From positions 3,968,001-4,032,000 of the forward strand of contig OZ250169.1 in the NCBI GenBank assembly GCA_965237955.1: 64,000 bases of DNA, read 5' to 3'. A program made the position numbers and the translations under genes. The DNA is from Candidatus Marinacidobacterales bacterium. GTDB lineage: Bacteria > Acidobacteriota > Vicinamibacteria > Marinacidobacterales > SMYC01. The notes below the pieces were generated by a model. The model did no database searches and was not told where the DNA came from. It saw only the letters and a list, made by a program, of their open reading frames with translations. The first letter of the stretch is position 1; each line of letters begins with the position of its first letter. This document shows positions 18,809-28,223 of this stretch, one piece after another.

Positions 18809-19370
18809 ATGGTGTGGGTTGTGCTCGGGCTCGTCATCGTCCTCGGGGGGGCGCTCGTCGTCTTCAACCGTCTCGTTCAGCTGAGGAATCGTGCGGCGGG
18901 GTCGTGGTCGGACATCGACGTCCAGCTCAAGCGACGTCACGATCTGGTGGGAAACCTCGTGGAGGCCGTGAAAGGCTATGCCTATCACGAACGGCAGGTG
19001 CTCGAGAAAGTTGCCGCGGCGCGCTCGAGCGCCGAGGGCGCCCGCACCGAAGGCCATCCCGGCGCCGCGGGAGCAGCCGAGTCGACGCTGTCAGGGGAGA
19101 TGGGAAAGCTCTTCGCGCTCGCGGAAGCTTATCCTGACTTGAAGGCAAGCGAGCAGTTCTCGAGCCTGCAAGCGCGCACTGACGAAAGTCGAGGACGATT
19201 TGCAGAACGCCCGTCGCTACTACAACGCAATCGTGCGCGATCTGAACACGCGCATCCAATCATTCCCGGCTCTCGTCGTCGCCCGCTCACTCGGGTTTCG
19301 GGAACGGGAGTTCTTCTCGCTCGAGGACCGGAGTGAGGCCGCTGCGCCGCGCGTGGAGCTCGGATCGTGA
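18809..19370 (+). pseudogene. lemA: LemA family protein, frameshifted near 19170
   Basis: 'WSDIDVQLKRRHDL', 'AEAYPDLKAS'; 'ARRYYNAIVRDLNTRIQSFP' lies in a shifted frame. Confidence 0.85.
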
Positions 19371-21095
19371 GAGCTCGACTTCTTCTTCTTCTTCTTCTTC
19401 TTCTTCTGCTGCTGCTGCTGGCGTGCGTGCTCGTGGCCGCGCCGCTCGCCGCCGATCGCGGCGGATATCGCATCGCAAGCTTCGACGTCGAGCTCACGGT
19501 GGAGGCGAATGCCGATCTCCTCGTGCAAGAGCGCCTCGTCGTCGACTTCTCGGAAGCTCGACACGGTATCTATCGCACCATCCCCGTTCGCTATACCGAT
19601 CCCCGCGGCTATCTCTACTCACTCGAGTTTCGTCTCCTCGATGTGGTTGACGACAGCGGCGGTGCTCACACGACCCACGTCACCCGCGAGGGGAAATACG
19701 TGAAGATCGGGATTGGGCACCCGAACCGAACCGTCCACGGCCGTGTGGTCTACGTCGTGCGCTATCGGGTTCGAGACGCGGTAGCGCATTTCGCGGAGCA
19801 CGATGAGCTCTACTGGAATGCGACCGGCAACGAGTGGCAGGCTCCGATCGATGCGGCTTCTGCGCGCGTCGAGCTACCGGCGCCCGTTGCTCGAGACGAG
19901 ATCGAGGCGGTCGCTTACACGGGTGCCTTTGGCAGCCGCGAGCAAGAAGCCATCGTCGATTACCCCGAAGAATCCGTTATCACCTACTGGGCATCGAGCT
20001 CTCTCGCTCCGCTCCGGGGGTTGACCATCGTGGCCGCTTGGCCGCACGGAGTCGTCACATTTCCGGGCACCGCCGGAAGAACAACGCGATTTGTCGCCGA
20101 CAACTGGATCGTCCTCGCTCCGCTCTTGGCGCGTCGTTATTGGACGGCAGGCCGCGATCCTCGAGGGCCGGCGTCGGTCGTCGTGCGCTACGAGCCGCCG
20201 CCCGATCTCACCCCCGGTGAAATCGGCGCTCTCGTCGACGAGCGTGTCGATCTCCGAGACCTGACGGCGACGGTCGTCGATCTCGCGATCAAAGGCTATT
20301 TGCGGATCCGCGTGGACCAGAAGGATCGCCTTTTTGGTCTTCTCAAGAAAGACGAGACCTGGTTCGAGCGAAGCGATCGCTCGTGGGACGATCTACGCGA
20401 CTACGAACAGAAAGTGCTCTCGGGAATCTTCGCGAGTGGAAGCCTTGTTTCGACGGATGACCTCGAGGAAAAGTTTCTACAAGCAGATCCAGGGAATACG
20501 AGACGCGCTCTGGGAAGACCTCGCGAACCGTCGCTATGTCGCCGGAAAGCCGAACGCGGTGCGGCGCCTATGGAAGATCCTCGGTGTCGTTGCCGGTGTA
20601 CTCACCGTGGCCATCGGCTACGGGTGGGCGGCCTTTCGAGGCGCTATCTTCCCGCAGGCGCTTGTTCTGCCGATCGTAGCGGGCGTGGTCGTGGCTTTTC
20701 TCTTTCTCGTCTTTTCGCGTGGGATGCCGCGACGTACACGCAAAGGCGTGGAGCTCCGGGCGTGGGCTCTCGGGTTCGAGGAGTTCGTCGATCGTGTCGA
20801 GCGCGAAAACCTCGAGGCTCAACGTCAGAGAAACGTCTTCGAAGCTCTTTTGCCGTACGCCATGGCCCTCGGCGTCGCCGCGGCGTGGGCCCGCCAATTC
20901 GAGGGGATTTACGCGACCGCTCCTCCGGTGTGGTTTCATGGTCATTCGGCATCGACATCCGGATTCTCCACACCGAGGTTCGAGCGCACTTTGAGCACCG
21001 CGATGTCGCGGGCAGGAACCGGCATGACCGCCGCCCCGCGCTCACAAGGCTCGAGTGGCTTCGGTGGCGGCGGCGGAGGTGGTGGCTCCTGGTGA
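19367..21095 (+). pseudogene. DUF2207 membrane protein, frameshifted near 20470
   Basis: 'HGIYRTIP', 'DELYWNATG', 'FEALLPYAMALGV', terminal 'GGGGGGGGSW'. Confidence 0.85.
19379..19420 (+). repeat. (CTT)9(CTG)5 microsatellite encoding 14 Leu
   Basis: Read directly; lies in the signal peptide of the DUF2207 gene. Confidence 0.95.
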
Positions 21096-21279
21096 GCGAT
21101 CGACCGATATGTTGCAGATAAGCAGCATGACGGCGAGGTATTTCCCGAAAAGGACAGCGACGATTGCGATCGCAGCGGCGATGCTTCCCGGGCCGATCTG
21201 ATCGGATTCGGCCTGAAGCTCGTTATCCGTGTGCCTCTTTACACCAAAAGCCGATTCTTGTGAAGAGGATACAGGTAGT

Positions 21280-21870
21280 TCAAGCCCGAAGCCGCGACAG
21301 GAGAACGTCGGCGTCCGGTGGTCTCTGTACACGCGCGGTCGCGGACAGAAGATTTTTGGGATCGGCATCGGCCTCGAGAGTGAGCCGCTCGCACCCTTGA
21401 TACAACCTGTCGAGAAACGGGTGCAGCGTTTCCTCCAGCGTGTTCGCGCAAGCGGTCGTGCTCGGAGCGAGAAGACGGTTGCGGATGCGGAACGACACCT
21501 CGTCCACGCGAAACTCGAGAGCGCCTTTCAAGGTTGGCTCCTCTTCGAGAAACCGGCAGGCGGTGAGCGCGGCGCGAAAAGCGGCGCCGAGGCGGGTCAC
21601 CGGGTCGTCGTCGGACGCGCGCTTGCGGGAGTAGACAAGACTCGGACGGCCGTTCTGCCTCAGAGCGTAGTCTGCGGCGTGGCAAACGAGGACGACACCG
21701 GGGCCGTGGCGGACATGCCGGTAGTCCGCGACGTCGATGGGGATCTCGTCTTTCAGGCGGTCCTCTTGAATCCAGCGATGAAATATCGTGACCACGGCGT
21801 CGGGGTCGACGCGGGACGACTCGTCGGCGTAGAACTTCACCGTAATCTGGTGGGCATCGAGTGGTTGCAT
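21280..21870 (-). CDS. Hypothetical protein directly downstream of sulfite reductase
   Basis: 196 aa, 10 bp after the sir stop; 'IFHRWIQ..IDVADYRHVRHGPGVVL'. Confidence 0.7.
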   Translation of the reverse strand: MQPLDAHQITVKFYADESSRVDPDAVVTIFHRWIQEDRLKDEIPIDVADYRHVRHGPGVVLVCHAADYALRQNGRPSLVYSRKRASDDDPVTRLGAAFRAALTACRFLEEEPTLKGALEFRVDEVSFRIRNRLLAPSTTACANTLEETLHPFLDRLYQGCERLTLEADADPKNLLSATARVQRPPDADVLLSRLRA

Positions 21871-21880
21871 GGGCTCCTGG

Positions 21881-24133
21881 CTAGACTTCGGCCATACGCC
21901 CGTAACAGGCGTGCGTGGCTTCGATGAACAGTTGCGCTTCTTCGATGAGGTGATGCGCAGCGTCCGCGCTCACGTCATCGAGAATCTCTTTGTGAGTTCG
22001 GAACAGGTAGTGGGCGAACTTTCCGCCGGCGAAGCGGTCGAAGAAGAGTTTGGTGTCGTAGAACCGGCTTTTGAACTCGTCCACGATCCGCGAGGGGTCG
22101 CCGTTCACGTCCGTACTCTGGGTGTGCACCAGCGCTGCTGCGGCGGACACCATGGCATCGTAGGCGCCCCCGGCGGCGCCTTGGGCATCTCCACGTTCCA
22201 GTTGAAGCTGTGCTTCGAAAACGCGCCTCTCGCTCGCCGCGACCTCGAACGCGAACCGGGAGATGACCTCGCCCGCGCACTCGCCACGACCCATGTCCCC
22301 GATGGTGAACTCGCGCGGGTCACCCCAGTCGGAGTAAAGAGACGAGTCCTCCTCGTAGGCGGGAACATTCATCAAGTCGTCGAGCAGGACACGAACTTTG
22401 TCTTTGCCCATGCTCCGAATCAACGAGGAGAACGTCTGCCCCGACTGCGCCTCTCGCCGGTAGAGATCCGTGAGCCTGGTGACGACCTCGGGGATGCGTT
22501 TCGAGGGCACGGCGCCAATGGCTAAACCGAACGATTTTGCGTTCTCGGTCCATTGCCCGCCGAGCACGACCTGGAAGTGCGGGACCGTTCGTCTGTCGAA
22601 CTGGCGGCTCACGCCATAGAAGCCCACGTCGGCAACATGGTGTTGGCCGCACGAGTTGAAACAGCCACTCACTTTGATGTGAAGGTCTTTCACGGCGGTG
22701 TCGGAGGCCAGGTCCTGCGCCAGGAGGCGGTCTCTGAGCTGGGAGGCGAGGCCGCGCGACGAGGCGATGCCGAGCTTGCAGGTATCGGTTCCAGGGCAAG
22801 CGGTAACGTCCACGATCGTGCCGGCGCCCGGTTGTGCGAGCCCGATGGAATCGAGCGCGGTGAAGAGCTTCGGAAGATGCGCTTCGGCGACGTAGCGAAG
22901 CACGAAGTTCTGTTCCACGGTGGTGCGAAGCGTGTCGCCGCTGGACTTGCCGAACACTCGCGCGACCTCGGCGAGTGCCCTCGCCTGGTGGGCCGAGATG
23001 TCTCCGAGCGGAAGCGTCACCACGGCCACGGCATAGCCCTCTTGGCGCTGCGGACGGACGTTCGTCGCTTTCCATGCGTCGAATGCTGGCGGCACGTCGG
23101 GTGCGTCAACGTCGAGCGTTAACGGCGGCGGCGTCACGAGCTCGCCATCGCCTTCGCTCAGGTACTCCGTCCAGCGAGAATCTCCCGGCAATTTCCTTCT
23201 TTCTTCGAGAACGAGACGCCGGAGCTCGTCGATGCCCAGTTTTTTGACGAGAAACTTCAGCCGGGCCCGCGCGCGGTTTTTCTTCTCACCGAGGCGGGCG
23301 AAAACGCGGCAAATGGCCTGGGCGATCGGAAGGATCTCCTCTTCGGGGAGGAACGGATCGAACAACTTCGCCGGATGCGGAACCGCGCCGAGGCCGCCAC
23401 CAACGTAGAGCTCGAATCCGCGCCGTGTGCGGCCGTCTTCGGTTCGGGTCCGTGCGATGAAACCGAGATCGTGAAACGTGGTGAGCCCGCACGGCTCGTC
23501 CTTGCAGCCGGAAAAAGCAACTTTGAACTTGCGACCAAAGTCCTGGGCATCCGGATGACCCAACAGGAAGTAGGCCATGGCTCTCGCGTAGCGGGTCACG
23601 TCGAACGTTTCACCGCAGCAGACGCCGGCTAGAGGACAGGCGGTCACGTTCCTCACCGAGTTGCCACAGGCTTCGCGGGTGGTGATGCCAACCGCGGCGA
23701 GACGACGCATGACGTCGGGTGTGTCCTCGATGTGGACGTAGTGAAGCTGAAAATCCTGGCGCGTGGTGACGTGGAGCACGCCGGCGGAATACTCTTCGGA
23801 GAGCTCCGCGAGGACGTCGAGCTGATCCGGTGAGACCGACCCGAACGGGATCTTGATGCGTTGCATCCCCGGCGCGTCCCAGAGCGTTTGCAGGCCCTTG
23901 GTGAGCGCCGCCGAAGGGTAGGTGAGTGTGCGCGACTCGTTGCCGTCGTGCCGGTGGCCGTTGTCGTAGCGTTGCCCGTAGACACCTCGGCGAAGGCGGC
24001 TCTCGCCGAAGATCTTCTCGTCGAGCTTTCCCTGCCGGCGAAGCTCGAGCTCGGTCTCGTAGATGTCGATCTCGCGACCGAGATCGGGCGGGATCTGCGC
24101 CCCGAGTTCTTGTTTCCAGGTGAGGATACTCAT
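21881..24133 (-). CDS. Siroheme-[4Fe-4S] nitrite/sulfite reductase with C-terminal extension
   Basis: 'LRRGVYGQR', 'HVTTRQDFQLH', 'TACPGTDTCKLG', 'SGCFNSCGQH'. Confidence 0.9.
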   Translation of the reverse strand: MSILTWKQELGAQIPPDLGREIDIYETELELRRQGKLDEKIFGESRLRRGVYGQRYDNGHRHDGNESRTLTYPSAALTKGLQTLWDAPGMQRIKIPFGSVSPDQLDVLAELSEEYSAGVLHVTTRQDFQLHYVHIEDTPDVMRRLAAVGITTREACGNSVRNVTACPLAGVCCGETFDVTRYARAMAYFLLGHPDAQDFGRKFKVAFSGCKDEPCGLTTFHDLGFIARTRTEDGRTRRGFELYVGGGLGAVPHPAKLFDPFLPEEEILPIAQAICRVFARLGEKKNRARARLKFLVKKLGIDELRRLVLEERRKLPGDSRWTEYLSEGDGELVTPPPLTLDVDAPDVPPAFDAWKATNVRPQRQEGYAVAVVTLPLGDISAHQARALAEVARVFGKSSGDTLRTTVEQNFVLRYVAEAHLPKLFTALDSIGLAQPGAGTIVDVTACPGTDTCKLGIASSRGLASQLRDRLLAQDLASDTAVKDLHIKVSGCFNSCGQHHVADVGFYGVSRQFDRRTVPHFQVVLGGQWTENAKSFGLAIGAVPSKRIPEVVTRLTDLYRREAQSGQTFSSLIRSMGKDKVRVLLDDLMNVPAYEEDSSLYSDWGDPREFTIGDMGRGECAGEVISRFAFEVAASERRVFEAQLQLERGDAQGAAGGAYDAMVSAAAALVHTQSTDVNGDPSRIVDEFKSRFYDTKLFFDRFAGGKFAHYLFRTHKEILDDVSADAAHHLIEEAQLFIEATHACYGRMAEV

Positions 24134-24891
24134 ACAGGAACTCCCTTCGATGAAACTTGGCCTTCCGAGCCTTTGGAGATTGTCGCGCCGAGACTGACGA
24201 CGTCGCCGACGATGATCACGCCCGGCGCTCCAGGGAGAGGAACGGGCGTGCGCGCGAGCGTTGCGATGGTCCCGGTCCAAGTGGCGGTGTCGGGCGACGA
24301 GGCGTTGCAGGTGATAGCGGCTGGGGTCTCTCGGCTCCATCCGCGCTCTATCAAGAACTCCGCGAGCGTCGTGCGAGTCGAAAGACCCATCAGCACGACG
24401 AGGGTCACCGAGTGAGGATCGATCGAGCCGAGGACCGTGCCGAGGGCTTCCGGGCTGTGGCCGGAAAGCACGACGAAAGCCGAAGTGAGGCCGCGGTGGG
24501 TCACCGGCATGCCAGCGAGCGCGGGTGCGGCAAGCGCCGAGCTGATGCCGGGCACGATCTCGTAAGGCACACCGGCTCTCGCCAGAGCGAGCGCCTCTTC
24601 GCCGCCTCGACCGAGAACGAACGGGTCGCCGCCCTTGAGGCGGACGAGACGATCGCCTCCGCGCGCAAATTGGATCATGAGCTCATGAATGGCTTCCTGC
24701 TCGATCCTCCCGCAACCCTTCCGTTTCCCGACGTCGAAGCACTGCGCGTCTCGAGCGAGCTTCAACACTTCGTCCGATACCAGCGCGTCGTACAGGACGA
24801 CGACCGCCTCTTCGAGGCGCTTCACCGCCTTCACTGTCAAAAGCTCGGGGTCGCCGGGTCCCGCACCGACGAGAGAGACTAGACCCGTCAT
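24130..24891 (-). CDS. cobA: Uroporphyrinogen-III C-methyltransferase
   Basis: 'LVGAGPGDPELLT', 'RLKGGDPFVLGRGGEE', 'PGISSA'. Confidence 0.93.
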   Translation of the reverse strand: MTGLVSLVGAGPGDPELLTVKAVKRLEEAVVVLYDALVSDEVLKLARDAQCFDVGKRKGCGRIEQEAIHELMIQFARGGDRLVRLKGGDPFVLGRGGEEALALARAGVPYEIVPGISSALAAPALAGMPVTHRGLTSAFVVLSGHSPEALGTVLGSIDPHSVTLVVLMGLSTRTTLAEFLIERGWSRETPAAITCNASSPDTATWTGTIATLARTPVPLPGAPGVIIVGDVVSLGATISKGSEGQVSSKGVPV

Positions 24892-25457
24892 CCGCGCGCT
24901 GCCTTTTCGTAGAGCTGGTTCACCGCTTGGAGGAGCAGAGGATAGCGGCGCTCCATCGGAACGCCCGCGGCCCGCCACTCGCGACGCTTCTCGACCGCGA
25001 GACTCCTCCATCGATCGAGATCGGCAGGGAGGAGCTCGGCGAGAGCTTCGCGCAATAGTCGCGACAGCGCCGGAGCGGCTCCACCGGTCGAGATACTCAC
25101 GGTGACGCCGGAGCGGCGCACCACGGCACCAGCGTAGGCGCTGCAAGACGCTTTGTCGTCTACGGCGATCACGAACCGCCGCCGTTTCTCCGCGACGTTT
25201 GCGACCAGGTGGTTGATCGCAGGCGTCGCCGCGGCAATCACGAACCAGGCGTTTTTGAGATCGCGAGCGTGGAAGGCGCGCCGATGCAACGTGAGGTTCG
25301 GGTGCGTCCAGGCGAAGCCGATCGACGGCGCGACGACGGTGACGCGGGCCCCCGCGTCCAGAAGACTCTTGGTCTTGGACTCTGCCACGGCGCCGCCGCC
25401 GACCACGACAGCGTCCCGTCCGTCGAGGTCGAGAAAAACCGGAAACAGTGCCGGCAT
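24888..25457 (-). CDS. Precorrin-2 dehydrogenase / sirohydrochlorin ferrochelatase (CysG N-terminal type)
   Basis: 'FPVFLDL', 'VVGGGAVAESK', 'ISTGGAAPALSR'. Confidence 0.88.
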   Translation of the reverse strand: MPALFPVFLDLDGRDAVVVGGGAVAESKTKSLLDAGARVTVVAPSIGFAWTHPNLTLHRRAFHARDLKNAWFVIAAATPAINHLVANVAEKRRRFVIAVDDKASCSAYAGAVVRRSGVTVSISTGGAAPALSRLLREALAELLPADLDRWRSLAVEKRREWRAAGVPMERRYPLLLQAVNQLYEKAARG

Positions 25458-25474
25458 GTTCGTGCTCCTAAAGT

Positions 25475-25511
25475 AAAAAAGGCCCGGCTCCCTTCACAGG
25501 AAGCTGGGCCT
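25475..25511 (-). terminator. Intrinsic terminator (attenuator) just upstream of the cysG-N start
   Basis: AGGCCCAGCTTCC-loop-GGAGCCGGGCCT followed by a T-run, 17 nt before the ATG. Confidence 0.8.
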
Positions 25512-25534
25512 GGATTGCCGCTTGGGCTAACGAT

Positions 25535-25678
25535 CTACATAGCTACCCCGAGGCTCAGGCTCGCCACTTGGCCGCCCGGCCCGTCGGTCCCGTTCCTATC
25601 AACGCGATGCAGCAATTTCTTGAAGCAAGGCCCAGTCCCGCTGGGCCGGATACACTCGCAATAAATGGAAACTGTCAT
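25535..25678 (-). CDS. Cys-containing leader peptide, 47 aa (MTVSIYCECIRPSGTGPCFKK...)
   Basis: Hand-translated sORF between promoter and terminator; 3 Cys. Confidence 0.65.
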   Translation of the reverse strand: MTVSIYCECIRPSGTGPCFKKLLHRVDRNGTDGPGGQVASLSLGVAM

Positions 25679-25704
25679 CGCAAAACTCTCGAATCAGACA
25701 ACCC

Positions 25705-25733
25705 AATATGACAAAAACCATAGGAGTTGTCAA
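25705..25733 (-). promoter_or_regulatory. Sigma70-type promoter
   Basis: TTGACA-17-CATATT with extended TG. Confidence 0.7.
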
Positions 25734-25744
25734 GTTCGAAGGTC

Positions 25745-25773
25745 TTGACAAGCGTGCCGGATTGCGCCATGCT
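25745..25773 (+). promoter_or_regulatory. Sigma70-type promoter
   Basis: TTGACA-17-CATGCT. Confidence 0.65.
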
Positions 25774-25783
25774 GTGTCGAGCG

Positions 25784-25906
25784 ATGAGTTTACTGGCGTG
25801 TACCAACTGCGCATGTAGCGGGCCCGCTCGCACGGGCCAACATGCCACCATGCCAAGATACGCGGGATCGTATCTTGGCCGAGAGGAACTAGCGATTAGC
25901 CGCTAA
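25784..25906 (+). CDS. Cys-containing leader peptide, 40 aa (MSLLACTNCACSGPARTGQ...)
   Basis: Hand-translated sORF about 10 nt after the -10 box; Cys at codons 6, 9 and 11. Confidence 0.68.
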   Translation: MSLLACTNCACSGPARTGQHATMPRYAGSYLGREELAISR

Positions 25907-25934
25907 AGCCCAGGCAATCTCACACGGCGTATTG

Positions 25935-25970
25935 GCCCAGGTCGAAAAAGGACCTGGGCTTTTTGCTTTT
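25935..25970 (+). terminator. Intrinsic terminator (attenuator) upstream of cysH
   Basis: GCCCAGGTC-GAAAAAG-GACCTGGGC then TTTTTGCTTTT. Confidence 0.85.
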
Positions 25971-25985
25971 GTGGCGGAGGTAGAA

Positions 25986-26711
25986 ATGGAAACGGAAACT
26001 CAGTCGGAGCGCCTCGACGAGTTGCACCGAGAGCTGAAGTTACGAGCAACGGTGGAAGTGCTTCGCGTCGTCACGGAACGATTCCGCGACCGAGTGACGA
26101 TGTCCACCGGCTTCGGTGTCTCGGGCTCGGTTCTTCTCGATATCGCCGCGCGCAACGCGATCCCGCTCGACGTCTTCACGCTCGATACCGGACTTTTGTT
26201 CCCCGAGACGTACGCGCTCTGGGAGCAGCTCGAGACCCGGTACGGGATGACGATTCGCGGCGTCCGACCGGCCATGAGTGTCGATGAGCAAGCTCGAAAG
26301 CTCGGCGAGGCGCTCTGGGAGAGAGAGCCGGACGCGTGCTGCCGGCTCCGGAAAGTCGTTCCGCTCGAAGCGGCGCTGAGCGGATTCGATGCGTGGATCA
26401 CGGCGATCCGCCGCGATCAGACCGCGGATCGCGCCGATAGCTCGTGGGCCGAGATCGACGAGCGTTTCGGTGTGGTGAAGGTCAACCCGCTCATCGAATG
26501 GACGTCGGACGACGTCTGGCACTACGTCCGCCGCTACGACGTGCCCTTCAACCCTCTTCACCTGCACGGCTTTCCGAGCATCGGCTGCGGTCCATGCACG
26601 ACGCCAGTCGCTTCGGGCGAGTCGCGCCGCGCCGGTCGATGGCGAGGACGCGGCAAGACCGAGTGCGGGCTCCACGGCCGGCCTCGCTCGGAGACTTCAC
26701 GCGAGAGTTAG
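25986..26711 (+). CDS. cysH: APS/PAPS reductase (Fe-S type)
   Basis: 'LDTGLLFPETY', 'CCRLRKV', 'SIGCGPCT', 'KTECGLH'; GGAGG RBS. Confidence 0.92.
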   Translation: METETQSERLDELHRELKLRATVEVLRVVTERFRDRVTMSTGFGVSGSVLLDIAARNAIPLDVFTLDTGLLFPETYALWEQLETRYGMTIRGVRPAMSVDEQARKLGEALWEREPDACCRLRKVVPLEAALSGFDAWITAIRRDQTADRADSSWAEIDERFGVVKVNPLIEWTSDDVWHYVRRYDVPFNPLHLHGFPSIGCGPCTTPVASGESRRAGRWRGRGKTECGLHGRPRSETSRES

Positions 26712-26769
26712 GCGGCCGGTCACCGGCCCATGGTATCGTGCGCCGTCGCGCGGGGATTAGAGTAAACGA

Positions 26770-26910
26770 TGTGACGGTATCGTCGAGCTGATCGCTTTGC
26801 TCGAGGTAATCCACGACGCGTCCGATGTGGAAATCCATGTTCTCGACCATGGCTGCGTAGAGCTCCATCGCGCGCGCATACGTTTGCTTCGACTCTTCGT
26901 CGAGGTGTGG
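26770..26910 (-). pseudogene. Arylsulfatase internal fragment
   Basis: 'ARAMELYAAMVENMDFHIGRVVDYLEQSDQLDDT'. Confidence 0.6.
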
Positions 26911-28223
26911 AGGGAGACTCGAGTTGCATCGGCGCTCCCGTGGACGGGCTATACTCGGCACACTCGATGTCTGCACTGTGGCGCCAACTTCGCCGACGCG
27001 GCAACCGTACTCTCGTGGAGCTCGGGTCGCAGTCGGAGAGAGCGGTCGAGACTTCGTTTCGAATACTGCTGCTCAGAGCGCCCGATGCAACCGAGCGTCG
27101 CGACCGCTCACGCGTGCTCGAGGGCGGGCAATCGCCAGACGAGCTCAACCGAAGCCTTTTTGGCTCGGCCGAGTTTCGCCAGGTGCACGACGGACTCACT
27201 GGCAGCGGCGATCTCGGCCGCAATCCCGACGTGGTCGCACGGGAAGTACTTGCGCGCGTCGGCGACCGCGCTACATTCGTTGCGGCTGCCTACCGTTGTC
27301 TTCTTGGACGTGACGCGGACGCGGCCGGCCGTGCGTACTACCTCGAACGTCTCTCCCAGGGCGCGTCTCACCTGAGCGTCATCAAAGCGCTTGCGCTGTC
27401 GGACGAGTTCGATGCGCGGTACAAGGAGATCTGTCCTCAGGTCGGTCTCATTCCCTACGACGCTCAGCTTTGCGAGCTCGCCAATCCTGCGAAGTGGGAC
27501 AACCCCGAGTGGGTGTCCTTGCTGCGATCGGTCGGTACGGTGCCGCCCGACAAGCTATCGATGCATCGCAAAGCCTACGAGTTCACGCAGACGCTCTTCG
27601 GTCTTTCTCGGCTGGACCGGCTGCGGGACGGCGTGCGCATTTTGAGCGTTGGTGCCGGCCATGAAGCCATCCTCTACTGGCTAGCCAACCGCGTCGGTTG
27701 CGTCGTCGCTACGGACATGTACGACACCGAATGGAAAAACGCTCGTGCCGGCGAGGGCGACGAGAACGTCGCTAGACGACCCGAGGAGTTCGCCCCATTT
27801 CCCTACAGACAGGACCACCTAGTCTTTTCGGAGATGAACGGGCGGACGCTCGGATTCCGTGACGAGTCGTTCGACGTCGCCTACTCGCTGTCCTCGATCG
27901 AGCACTTCGGCGGCTTCGAGGGGGGGCGGGATGCGATCGACGAGATGGCGCGCGTCGTCAAGCCTGGCGGGCTAGTCGTGGTCGCGACCGAGTATCTCCT
28001 TGCTGGACCAAGAACCGACGAGACGTTTCCGCCCGACGAGATCCGCGCGCTTGCCGACCGCCCGGGGCTCAAACTCTTGCAGCCCATCGATGAGCACATT
28101 TACGAACGCTACCAGCTGGAGGCCGTCGATCTCCTGACGAACCCGTACCAGACACCGCAGATGTTGGTACGAAATGGCGACACCGTGTTCACGTCGGTGA
28201 TGCTGTTTCTCGAGAAGGCCTAA
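26907..28223 (+). CDS. DUF4214-like repeats fused to a class I SAM methyltransferase (start uncertain)
   Basis: 'FVAAAYRCLLGRDADAAGRAYY..SDEF'; 'ILSVGAG', 'FDVAYSLSSIEHFG', 'RVVKPGG'. Confidence 0.7.
   Translation: MEGDSSCIGAPVDGLYSAHSMSALWRQLRRRGNRTLVELGSQSERAVETSFRILLLRAPDATERRDRSRVLEGGQSPDELNRSLFGSAEFRQVHDGLTGSGDLGRNPDVVAREVLARVGDRATFVAAAYRCLLGRDADAAGRAYYLERLSQGASHLSVIKALALSDEFDARYKEICPQVGLIPYDAQLCELANPAKWDNPEWVSLLRSVGTVPPDKLSMHRKAYEFTQTLFGLSRLDRLRDGVRILSVGAGHEAILYWLANRVGCVVATDMYDTEWKNARAGEGDENVARRPEEFAPFPYRQDHLVFSEMNGRTLGFRDESFDVAYSLSSIEHFGGFEGGRDAIDEMARVVKPGGLVVVATEYLLAGPRTDETFPPDEIRALADRPGLKLLQPIDEHIYERYQLEAVDLLTNPYQTPQMLVRNGDTVFTSVMLFLEKA

Follow-up and report, generated by a model that had tools for sequence, protein, structure and literature searches.

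Two divergent leaders in a window of 64,000 nt (the whole stretch of DNA analysed here) are real and conserved, and are probably functional cysteine attenuators. The leftward leader precedes cysG-N, cobA and a sulfite reductase gene and would probably act as a ribosome-mediated transcription attenuator that senses charged tRNA-Cys and gates these three genes. The anatomy of the region, its gene context, the twin leader before cysH, and a layout that is conserved with compensating changes can all be read in this DNA and in that of its relatives. The leftward leader has the following elements.

25705..25733, minus strand: sigma70-type promoter of the leftward unit (TTGACA-17-CATATT), with 10/12 matches (0.2 expected in shuffles) and conserved in orthologues
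25686..25690, minus strand: weak Shine-Dalgarno-like GAGAG, 7 nt 5' of the leader ATG, recognised by sequence and of putative function
25535..25678, minus strand: leader ORF MTVSIYCECI...VAM, 47 codons, from the ORF listing
25641..25647, minus strand: segment 1, GGCCCAG, the 5' strand of the 1:2 protector hairpin (-14.3 kcal/mol)
25628..25640, minus strand: 1:2 loop and segment 2 (CTGGGCCT at 25635-28), from folding and covariation
25609..25616, minus strand: 5' strand of the inner antiterminator helix, AUUGCUGC, from folding
25514..25521, minus strand: 3' strand of the inner antiterminator helix, GCGGCAAU, from folding
25475..25511, minus strand: intrinsic-terminator-like 3:4 hairpin (segment 3 25511-04, segment 4 25487-80) and U6, from sequence and folding

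The sequence-only reading had described a leader ORF with Cys7 and Cys9, four segments and a terminator, and every element that it named (the ORF, segments 1-4 and U6) is present on the minus strand. So are its two complementarities: segment 1 pairs with segment 2, and segment 3 (AGGCCCAG at 25511-25504), the 5' arm of the terminator, is the exact complement of segment 2. Transcription is predicted to start at about 25698, and GAGAG or GGGAG occupies the Shine-Dalgarno position in the three closest orthologues. The ORF contains Cys7 (TGC, 25660-58), Cys9 (TGT, 25654-52) and Cys18, the last of which was rejected as a control codon because it is absent from the orthologues. Segment 1 begins 4 nt past the Cys9 codon, and the stop codon comes 91 nt after segment 2 ends and 24 nt 5' of the terminator. 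The terminator hairpin (25511-25480, -24.0 kcal/mol, followed by T6 at 25480-25475) includes one A.C mismatch, at 25486, which is also present in DNA run X3. A simple terminator scan missed this hairpin, which was recovered by folding and by a separate hairpin/uORF scan. The leader RNA folds with a z score of -3.26 relative to shuffles, 1/200 of which are equally good.

Three genes follow the leftward leader.

24888..25457, minus strand: cysG-N (siroheme synthase N-terminal domain), the first gene of the putatively regulated set; TIGR01470 above cut-off
24130..24891, minus strand: cobA, or the C-terminal part of cysG, uroporphyrinogen-III C-methyltransferase; TIGR01469 and PRK06136 above cut-off
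21881..24136, minus strand: NirA/SirA-type sulfite (or nitrite) reductase, by profile match, with sulfite specificity suggested by context

The cysG-N gene starts 18 nt past the T tract, and its Shine-Dalgarno sequence, AGGAG (25469-65), lies outside the terminator hairpin. This placement argues against translational control as in mycobacterial poly-Cys leaders, in which the leader RNA would hide the cysG-N Shine-Dalgarno sequence. The fold of the free RNA does pair 25627-22 with GGAGCA around that site, but the pairing is absent in loci L123 and L124, and a GC hairpin and U tract stand upstream of the Shine-Dalgarno sequence in nearly all members of the leader family. Sequestration was rejected because the pairing is not conserved, and translational control has, in our view, only a very slim chance of being the explanation.

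Directly after the sulfite reductase gene, and on the same strand (21280-21870), lies a gene for a 196-aa conserved hypothetical protein that is also found in the relatives G015 and G018. This protein has no match in NCBIfam and none above cut-off in Pfam, its Atlas look-alikes are unnamed clusters, and it is possibly an unrecognised member of the pathway. At 18809-21121 on the plus strand, what is presumably a LemA-like gene and its membrane-protein neighbour are apparently split over several frames, possibly by frameshifts.

On the other side of the leftward promoter, the same layout is repeated in the opposite orientation.

25745..25773, plus strand: promoter of the twin rightward unit (TTGACA-17-CATGCT), called from sequence, below the promoter-scan threshold and with the same spacing to the ATG as in relatives
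25784..25906, plus strand: twin leader ORF of 40 codons with Cys6, Cys9 and Cys11 (segment 1 at 25821-26, segment 2 at 25833-46), from sequence and folding
25926..25968, plus strand: twin segment 3 (25926-39), intrinsic-terminator-like hairpin (25934-25960) and U tract, from terminator scan and folding
25986..26711, plus strand: cysH (APS/PAPS reductase), behind the twin leader; PRK02090 and TIGR00434 above cut-off

The two promoters stand back to back with 11 nt between their -35 boxes. The twin 1:2 hairpin likewise begins 4 nt past the last Cys codon, and the twin 2:3 helix is predicted to have 12 bp (25834-46 with 25926-38). The pattern TGY-NNN-TGY-N4-GGCCC-N5..14-GGGCC has 2 occurrences on both strands of the 8,134,597-base genome, and these are the two leaders, 150 nt apart; because the pattern was derived from them, the count shows rarity and carries no p-value. 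Contigs from DNA runs X3 and X5 extend across 25632-27531 and 24857-25566 with few differences, showing that both halves of the divergent region exist in other samples, with no listed piece spanning the whole of it. Both runs have one extra base at 26745 (past cysH) and at 27080 (inside a methyltransferase ORF, 26907-28223), where the window may contain indel errors or differ by strain. The genome encodes a normal tRNA-Cys(GCA) at 1732929 and a tRNA-Sec at 7659714. ARAGORN also calls a second tRNA-Cys at G000:C1:1295353-1295426 on the minus strand; its ACA anticodon and mismatched stems make it look like a decayed copy.

We modelled the structure that would form at each ribosome position. The antiterminator had been proposed as an 8-bp pairing of segments 2 and 3 spanning about 110 nt, and folding replaces this with a long interrupted stem. 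Its outer helix of 13-14 bp pairs the 1:2 loop and segment 2 with 25511-25497, and its loop is closed by an inner helix of 8 bp (25616-09 with 25521-14), which is also predicted in L123 and L124 and is absent from the prediction for L122. In such a stem the distance of about 110 nt is no obstacle to 2:3. With the ribosome stalled at Cys9, P(2:3) is 0.74-0.98 in the interval between the emergence of segment 3 and the near completion of segment 4. The predicted capture of the terminator arm depends on segment 2, dropping from -13.1 to -3.5 kcal/mol when that segment is blocked. A stall at Cys9 opens 1:2 with any ribosome footprint of 11-15 nt. The sequence-only reading had treated Cys7 as an equivalent stall site, but a ribosome there leaves 1:2 intact with a footprint of 11-13 nt (P(1:2) 0.98-0.99) and opens it only with a 15-nt footprint. 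Its core idea, that a stalled ribosome frees segment 2 to disrupt the terminator, is supported by conservation, covariation and co-transcriptional folding, with Cys9 in place of either codon.

Co-transcriptional folding with the ribosome at Cys9 versus at the stop codon had been suggested as a check. The 2:3 pairing does dominate at Cys9, but it also does so at the stop codon at most transcript lengths (P 0.77-0.98), and it remains dominant there until segment 4 is out, so that the proposed formation of the terminator after full translation does not emerge as an equilibrium result. Once the terminator is complete, P(2:3) at equilibrium is 0.00 at every ribosome position. Equilibrium folding of the complete, ribosome-masked leader, which is the wrong model for an attenuator, shows no switch in the leftward copy and counts against a thermodynamic one. 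Under the stall 3:4 is better than 2:3 by 2.9 kcal/mol, with an estimated barrier of 14.7 kcal/mol, and before segment 4 exits 2:3 wins at equilibrium even without a ribosome. Because the terminator wins once complete and 2:3 forms earlier without a stall, the switch must be kinetic.

The modelled energies indicate what such a kinetic switch would require. In the leftward copy, masking of the 5' RNA brings capture at the Cys9 stall to -13 to -14 kcal/mol. Capture is -8.4 kcal/mol when the RNA upstream of the stalled ribosome can pair freely, compared with -8.0 for naked RNA, and it is only -3.0 to -4.0 kcal/mol when 1:2 is held closed. The barrier to 2:3 is 13.6 kcal/mol from the closed 1:2 hairpin and 9.3 kcal/mol from the stalled state. 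These barriers and masking results suggest an ON state that would be kinetically trapped and an OFF state that would need the 1:2 hairpin to close again once the ribosome has passed, both of which are usual for attenuators. Across 83 parsed leaders of the family, mean capture before segment 4 exit is strongest for a ribosome on the last Cys codon (-13.2 kcal/mol); it is -8.0 kcal/mol with no ribosome or a ribosome at the stop codon, and -5.2 to -5.7 kcal/mol with the ribosome over segment 2. In 75/83 the ribosome position that gives the best capture is no more than 2 codons from the last Cys codon.

From these elements we infer that the leader is translated, that ribosomes stall at Cys9, that transcription terminates at the U tract, and how these events are timed. 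When Cys is scarce, the ribosome would wait at Cys9 (UGU) and cover segment 1, leaving the 1:2 loop and segment 2 free. The inner helix would then bring the loop and segment 2 to the emerging segment 3, allowing the outer helix to capture the 5' arm of the terminator before segment 4 is synthesized, and polymerase would pass the U tract and transcribe the downstream genes. When Cys is ample, the ribosome would run over segment 2 and through the antiterminator loop to the stop codon, with 1:2 re-forming behind it and 3:4 folding locally. Both states would depend on the order of folding rather than on equilibrium. The 1:2 hairpin could also be a candidate polymerase pause hairpin.

To place the two leaders among relatives we searched for cysH in 61 related genomes and in a set of 401 from the class, 132 of which (the genome of the window included) have a match at 1e-40, and examined the DNA upstream of 90 of the best-scoring cysH loci. 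A Cys leader and hairpin lie upstream of cysH at 80/90 of these best-scoring loci of the class (12/12, 17/18 and 44/60 by strict rules, plus 7 with weaker U tracts). The 10 cysH loci without a leader comprise 3 at contig ends and 7 with another gene directly upstream; in addition, the weaker cysH match L014 has no Cys leader upstream. Those cysH relatives that have a taxon name and leaders of the same family are Acidobacteriota, one of them in the Vicinamibacterales. In another set, also of 80 loci, three (L098, L062 and L096; one from the Planctomycetota, Phycisphaeraceae, and two Eremiobacterota-type) have a similar layout of Cys-ORF and terminator upstream of cysH, and such switches may occur in several phyla.

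In the nearest families the gene order is leader, cysH, cysG-N, cobA. Where cysG-N comes first, a Cys leader precedes it at 5/7 loci: G015, G018 and G012 have the left-type leader, G008 has a right-type one, and the leader of G059 is of another kind. The loci without one are that of G017, where the leader was lost together with operon integrity, and a weak match in G055. The G059 leader belongs to a second divergent Cys-leader pair (L127:3760-4200), whose sequences are unlike those of the window. One leader of that pair precedes cysG-N, cobA and the reductase gene, and the other precedes what we take, from the sequences, to be a cysteine-synthase-like gene with an additional fused domain, and a cysD-like gene. 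No Cys leader was seen directly upstream of the ATP sulfurylase gene. Of 1452 hairpins in a genome-wide terminator and uORF scan, 175 were loose candidates, many of them belonging to a single repeated element, and those listed contain no convincing Cys attenuator besides the two leaders. The scan also gave Trp, His and Phe candidates.

Several relatives show signs of decay, any of which could be an assembly error: in G017 (L125) the leader is deleted, half of the terminator remains and the operon is fragmented; in G015 (L122) the right arm is lost and only a remnant of the rightward promoter persists; and in G018 (L015) a broken cysH lies far from the operon. Such losses bear on the possibility that the family consists of Cys attenuators of which the leftward copy is a degraded or leaky member, responding weakly or not at all. 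That copy has its A.C terminator mismatch where the three closest orthologues pair perfectly, shows a small equilibrium gap at Cys9 and has a single well-placed Cys codon. Its four segments, inner helix, open frame, stop position and downstream genes are nevertheless intact, its capture is strong when the 5' RNA is masked, and 16/83 leaders have only two Cys codons. The mismatch would moreover favour the ON state rather than abolish it. We consider a degraded leftward copy unlikely.

The features kept by selection were examined in the set of 83 leaders, obtained from 101 sequences of which 89 could be parsed; a further 6 were removed because they were atypical, mis-anchored or came from other phyla. 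These leaders are mutually related and their counts are not independent, so that no p-value is claimed. All 83 have a Cys cluster, which was part of the selection rule; Cys makes up 0.6% of codons in the genome. Clusters hold 2-8 Cys codons with free flanking residues, and the last Cys codon is UGU in 79/83 leaders, compared with 751/2671 (28%) of Cys codons in long ORFs of the genome. That codon lies 4 nt from segment 1 in 14/14 order-level leaders. It is followed by 9-39 codons across the family, and many members have a leader that starts at or near the predicted transcription start.

The stop codon falls 20-45 nt 5' of the terminator in 80/83 leaders, whereas the first stop in the other two frames does so in 24/83 and 13/83, a comparison biased by the choice of leaders with a terminator within 150 nt after the stop, although this bias is insufficient to account for so narrow an interval. 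Beyond the Cys codons and the residues forced by GGCCC/GGGCC, the leader peptide is unconserved. The G015 leader (L122) has -1 and -2 shifts relative to that of the window and yet reaches the same stop, and the leaders of L007 and L009 share a stop through compensating frameshifts. This locus and its relatives thus give evidence, at the level of sequence, that the position of the stop may be under selection.

Pairing of segments 2 and 3 shows covariation. Both positions next to the GGGCC core pair in 10/14 order-level leaders, through U-A, A-U and G-C at one and U-A, U.G, C-G, G-C and A-U at the other; one position on the other side of the core is a C.A mismatch in 9/14. Cognate 2:3 duplexes average -29.2 kcal/mol, compared with -25.4 for non-cognate and -20.6 for shuffled ones, and the cognate duplex is better than its row median in 66/83 leaders. 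For the leftward leader of the window the cognate duplex ranks about 22nd of 83, with 21 non-cognate partners scoring better.

Assembled RNA contigs, from which strand, ends and level are not readable, match parts of both leaders. Run X18 has one exact 206-nt contig over 25793-25998, in the twin leader (depth 28.9). Run X17, from the same study, has an exact match to 25587-25688, the 5' half of the leftward leader (depth 42.8), which forms the last 102 nt of a 1037-nt contig that is probably a chimera, as its other 935 bases are unrelated. Run X16 has a contig over 25788-26054 at depth 4, and run X15 covers gene bodies only. These contigs fit abundant leader RNA, as a weak hint.

The contigs, and a frame kept open to a conserved stop, would also be expected if the leader encoded a functional Cys-containing micro-protein and the hairpin were a constitutive terminator. 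Compensating frameshifts, however, scramble the peptide between close relatives, a Pfam search with both leader peptides gave nothing meaningful and no family above cut-off, and no other promoter-like site is listed between the terminator and cysG-N. A micro-protein would also leave the 2:3 covariation unexplained, and we regard it as extremely improbable.

A real RNA switch with another driver (nascent-peptide arrest, an RNA-binding antiterminator protein or a ligand-binding riboswitch) would be compatible with a leader far longer than sensing requires and with conserved words beyond the pairing core, for example CCAAGCGGC 5' of segment 3. That word, however, is the 3' strand of the predicted antiterminator. 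In the window, Rfam gave 0 matches at gathering score and three at chance level (E 1.5-3.6), with T-box, SAM and other leader families unmatched. Variation in the number of Cys codons and in their flanking residues, together with a switch optimum that tracks the last Cys codon, also argues for tRNA-Cys charging as the driver, and we judge a different one decidedly improbable.

Given a ribosome-driven Cys attenuator, a broader proposal, which we advance as possible though doubtful, is that the Acidobacteriota have a cysteine regulon of RNA switches with a geometry of its own. The frame would stay open far past the Cys codons, and the ribosome would strip the antiterminator and park in its loop at a fixed distance (23-45 nt) from the terminator, and the OFF state would then depend on close ribosome-polymerase coupling. 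The promoter-leader module would have been doubled back to back upon splitting of the operon, here and, with different sequences, in G059.

The principle of attenuation is known and would not surprise specialists; for this leader family we found no published description. In the open-access main texts searched, no Cys terminator/antiterminator leader before sulfate-assimilation genes of Acidobacteriota was found. The available portions of PMC2965389, PMC11109978, PMC4833913, PMC13236596 and PMC13402693 contain no description of the family, which could be present in motif tables of PMC8632094, PMC11109978 or PMC2965389 or in subscription papers. This locus adds the back-to-back pair of Cys leaders (also present in G059) and the evidence of selection on stop position. 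If the mechanism is correct, the pathways under classical terminator-based attenuation would come to include cysteine and sulfate assimilation, in a phylum that is large but has received little study, and the >80 natural variants would supply a covariance model as well as a compact sensor of Cys-tRNA. The fixed distance from stop to terminator would offer a handle on transcription-translation coupling in the Acidobacteriota.

The Cys attenuators found in print, in the portions of the papers available, are a tested translational one in mycobacteria and a predicted terminator-type one before cysS. The latter, uORFC-8-2 of the Rhodobacterales (Brewer et al. 2021, PMC8632094), is a predicted Cys uORF with an intrinsic terminator, so that a terminator-type Cys attenuator is not unprecedented. 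As far as the available text of that paper goes, it shares with the present leaders two Cys codons, stems, the intrinsic terminator and the logic of stalling and read-through. It differs in phylum, in its target (cysS rather than cysG, sir and cysH) and in its tandem Cys codons 14-15, which are mostly UGC, whereas here Cys-x-Cys or runs of Cys end in UGU; its description there includes no antiterminator.

The mycobacterial polycysteine leaderless sORFs (Canestrari et al., 10.1101/834739) act on translation by hiding the Shine-Dalgarno sequence, with which the Cys tract pairs, and the available part of that paper states that Cys uORF attenuation was previously undescribed. Earlier predictions of actinobacterial poly-Cys leaders, as given in part of PMC1262725, come without terminators, and the accessible sections of PMC13236596 and PMC13402693 discuss the mycobacterial leaders. 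According to these partial sources, the Cys codons of a 5' ORF report tRNA-Cys charging to cysteine-synthesis genes in both systems, and the mycobacterial leaders likewise begin at or near the transcription start, as many of the present family are predicted to do. They have Cys runs near the stop and no intrinsic terminator in those accounts, whereas the present leaders have early Cys codons and a terminator and antiterminator.

The classical leader-peptide transcription attenuators include trpL of E. coli and the hisL, thrL, leuL, pheL and ilv leaders. Their scheme is also outlined in the available part of 10.1101/834739. Like the leaders described here, they have a leader ORF in which the pathway's end product is encoded, three pairings (1:2, 2:3 and 3:4) that exclude one another, and a U tract before the first gene. 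At this locus, a promoter and a short ORF with the regulating codons precede genes that make Cys (with sulfite specificity suggested by context), a terminator recognised by sequence and folding stands before the first of them, the exclusive hairpins are conserved, and a modelled stall masks segment 1 and spares segment 2. The window leader differs in sensing Cys, in gating sulfate assimilation and in forming part of a back-to-back pair. It also departs from the geometry of trpL, where a ribosome at the leader stop covers segment 2: here the ORF continues for 38 codons after the control codons and crosses both segment 2 and the antiterminator loop, so that its stop is too far downstream for a ribosome there to cover segment 2.
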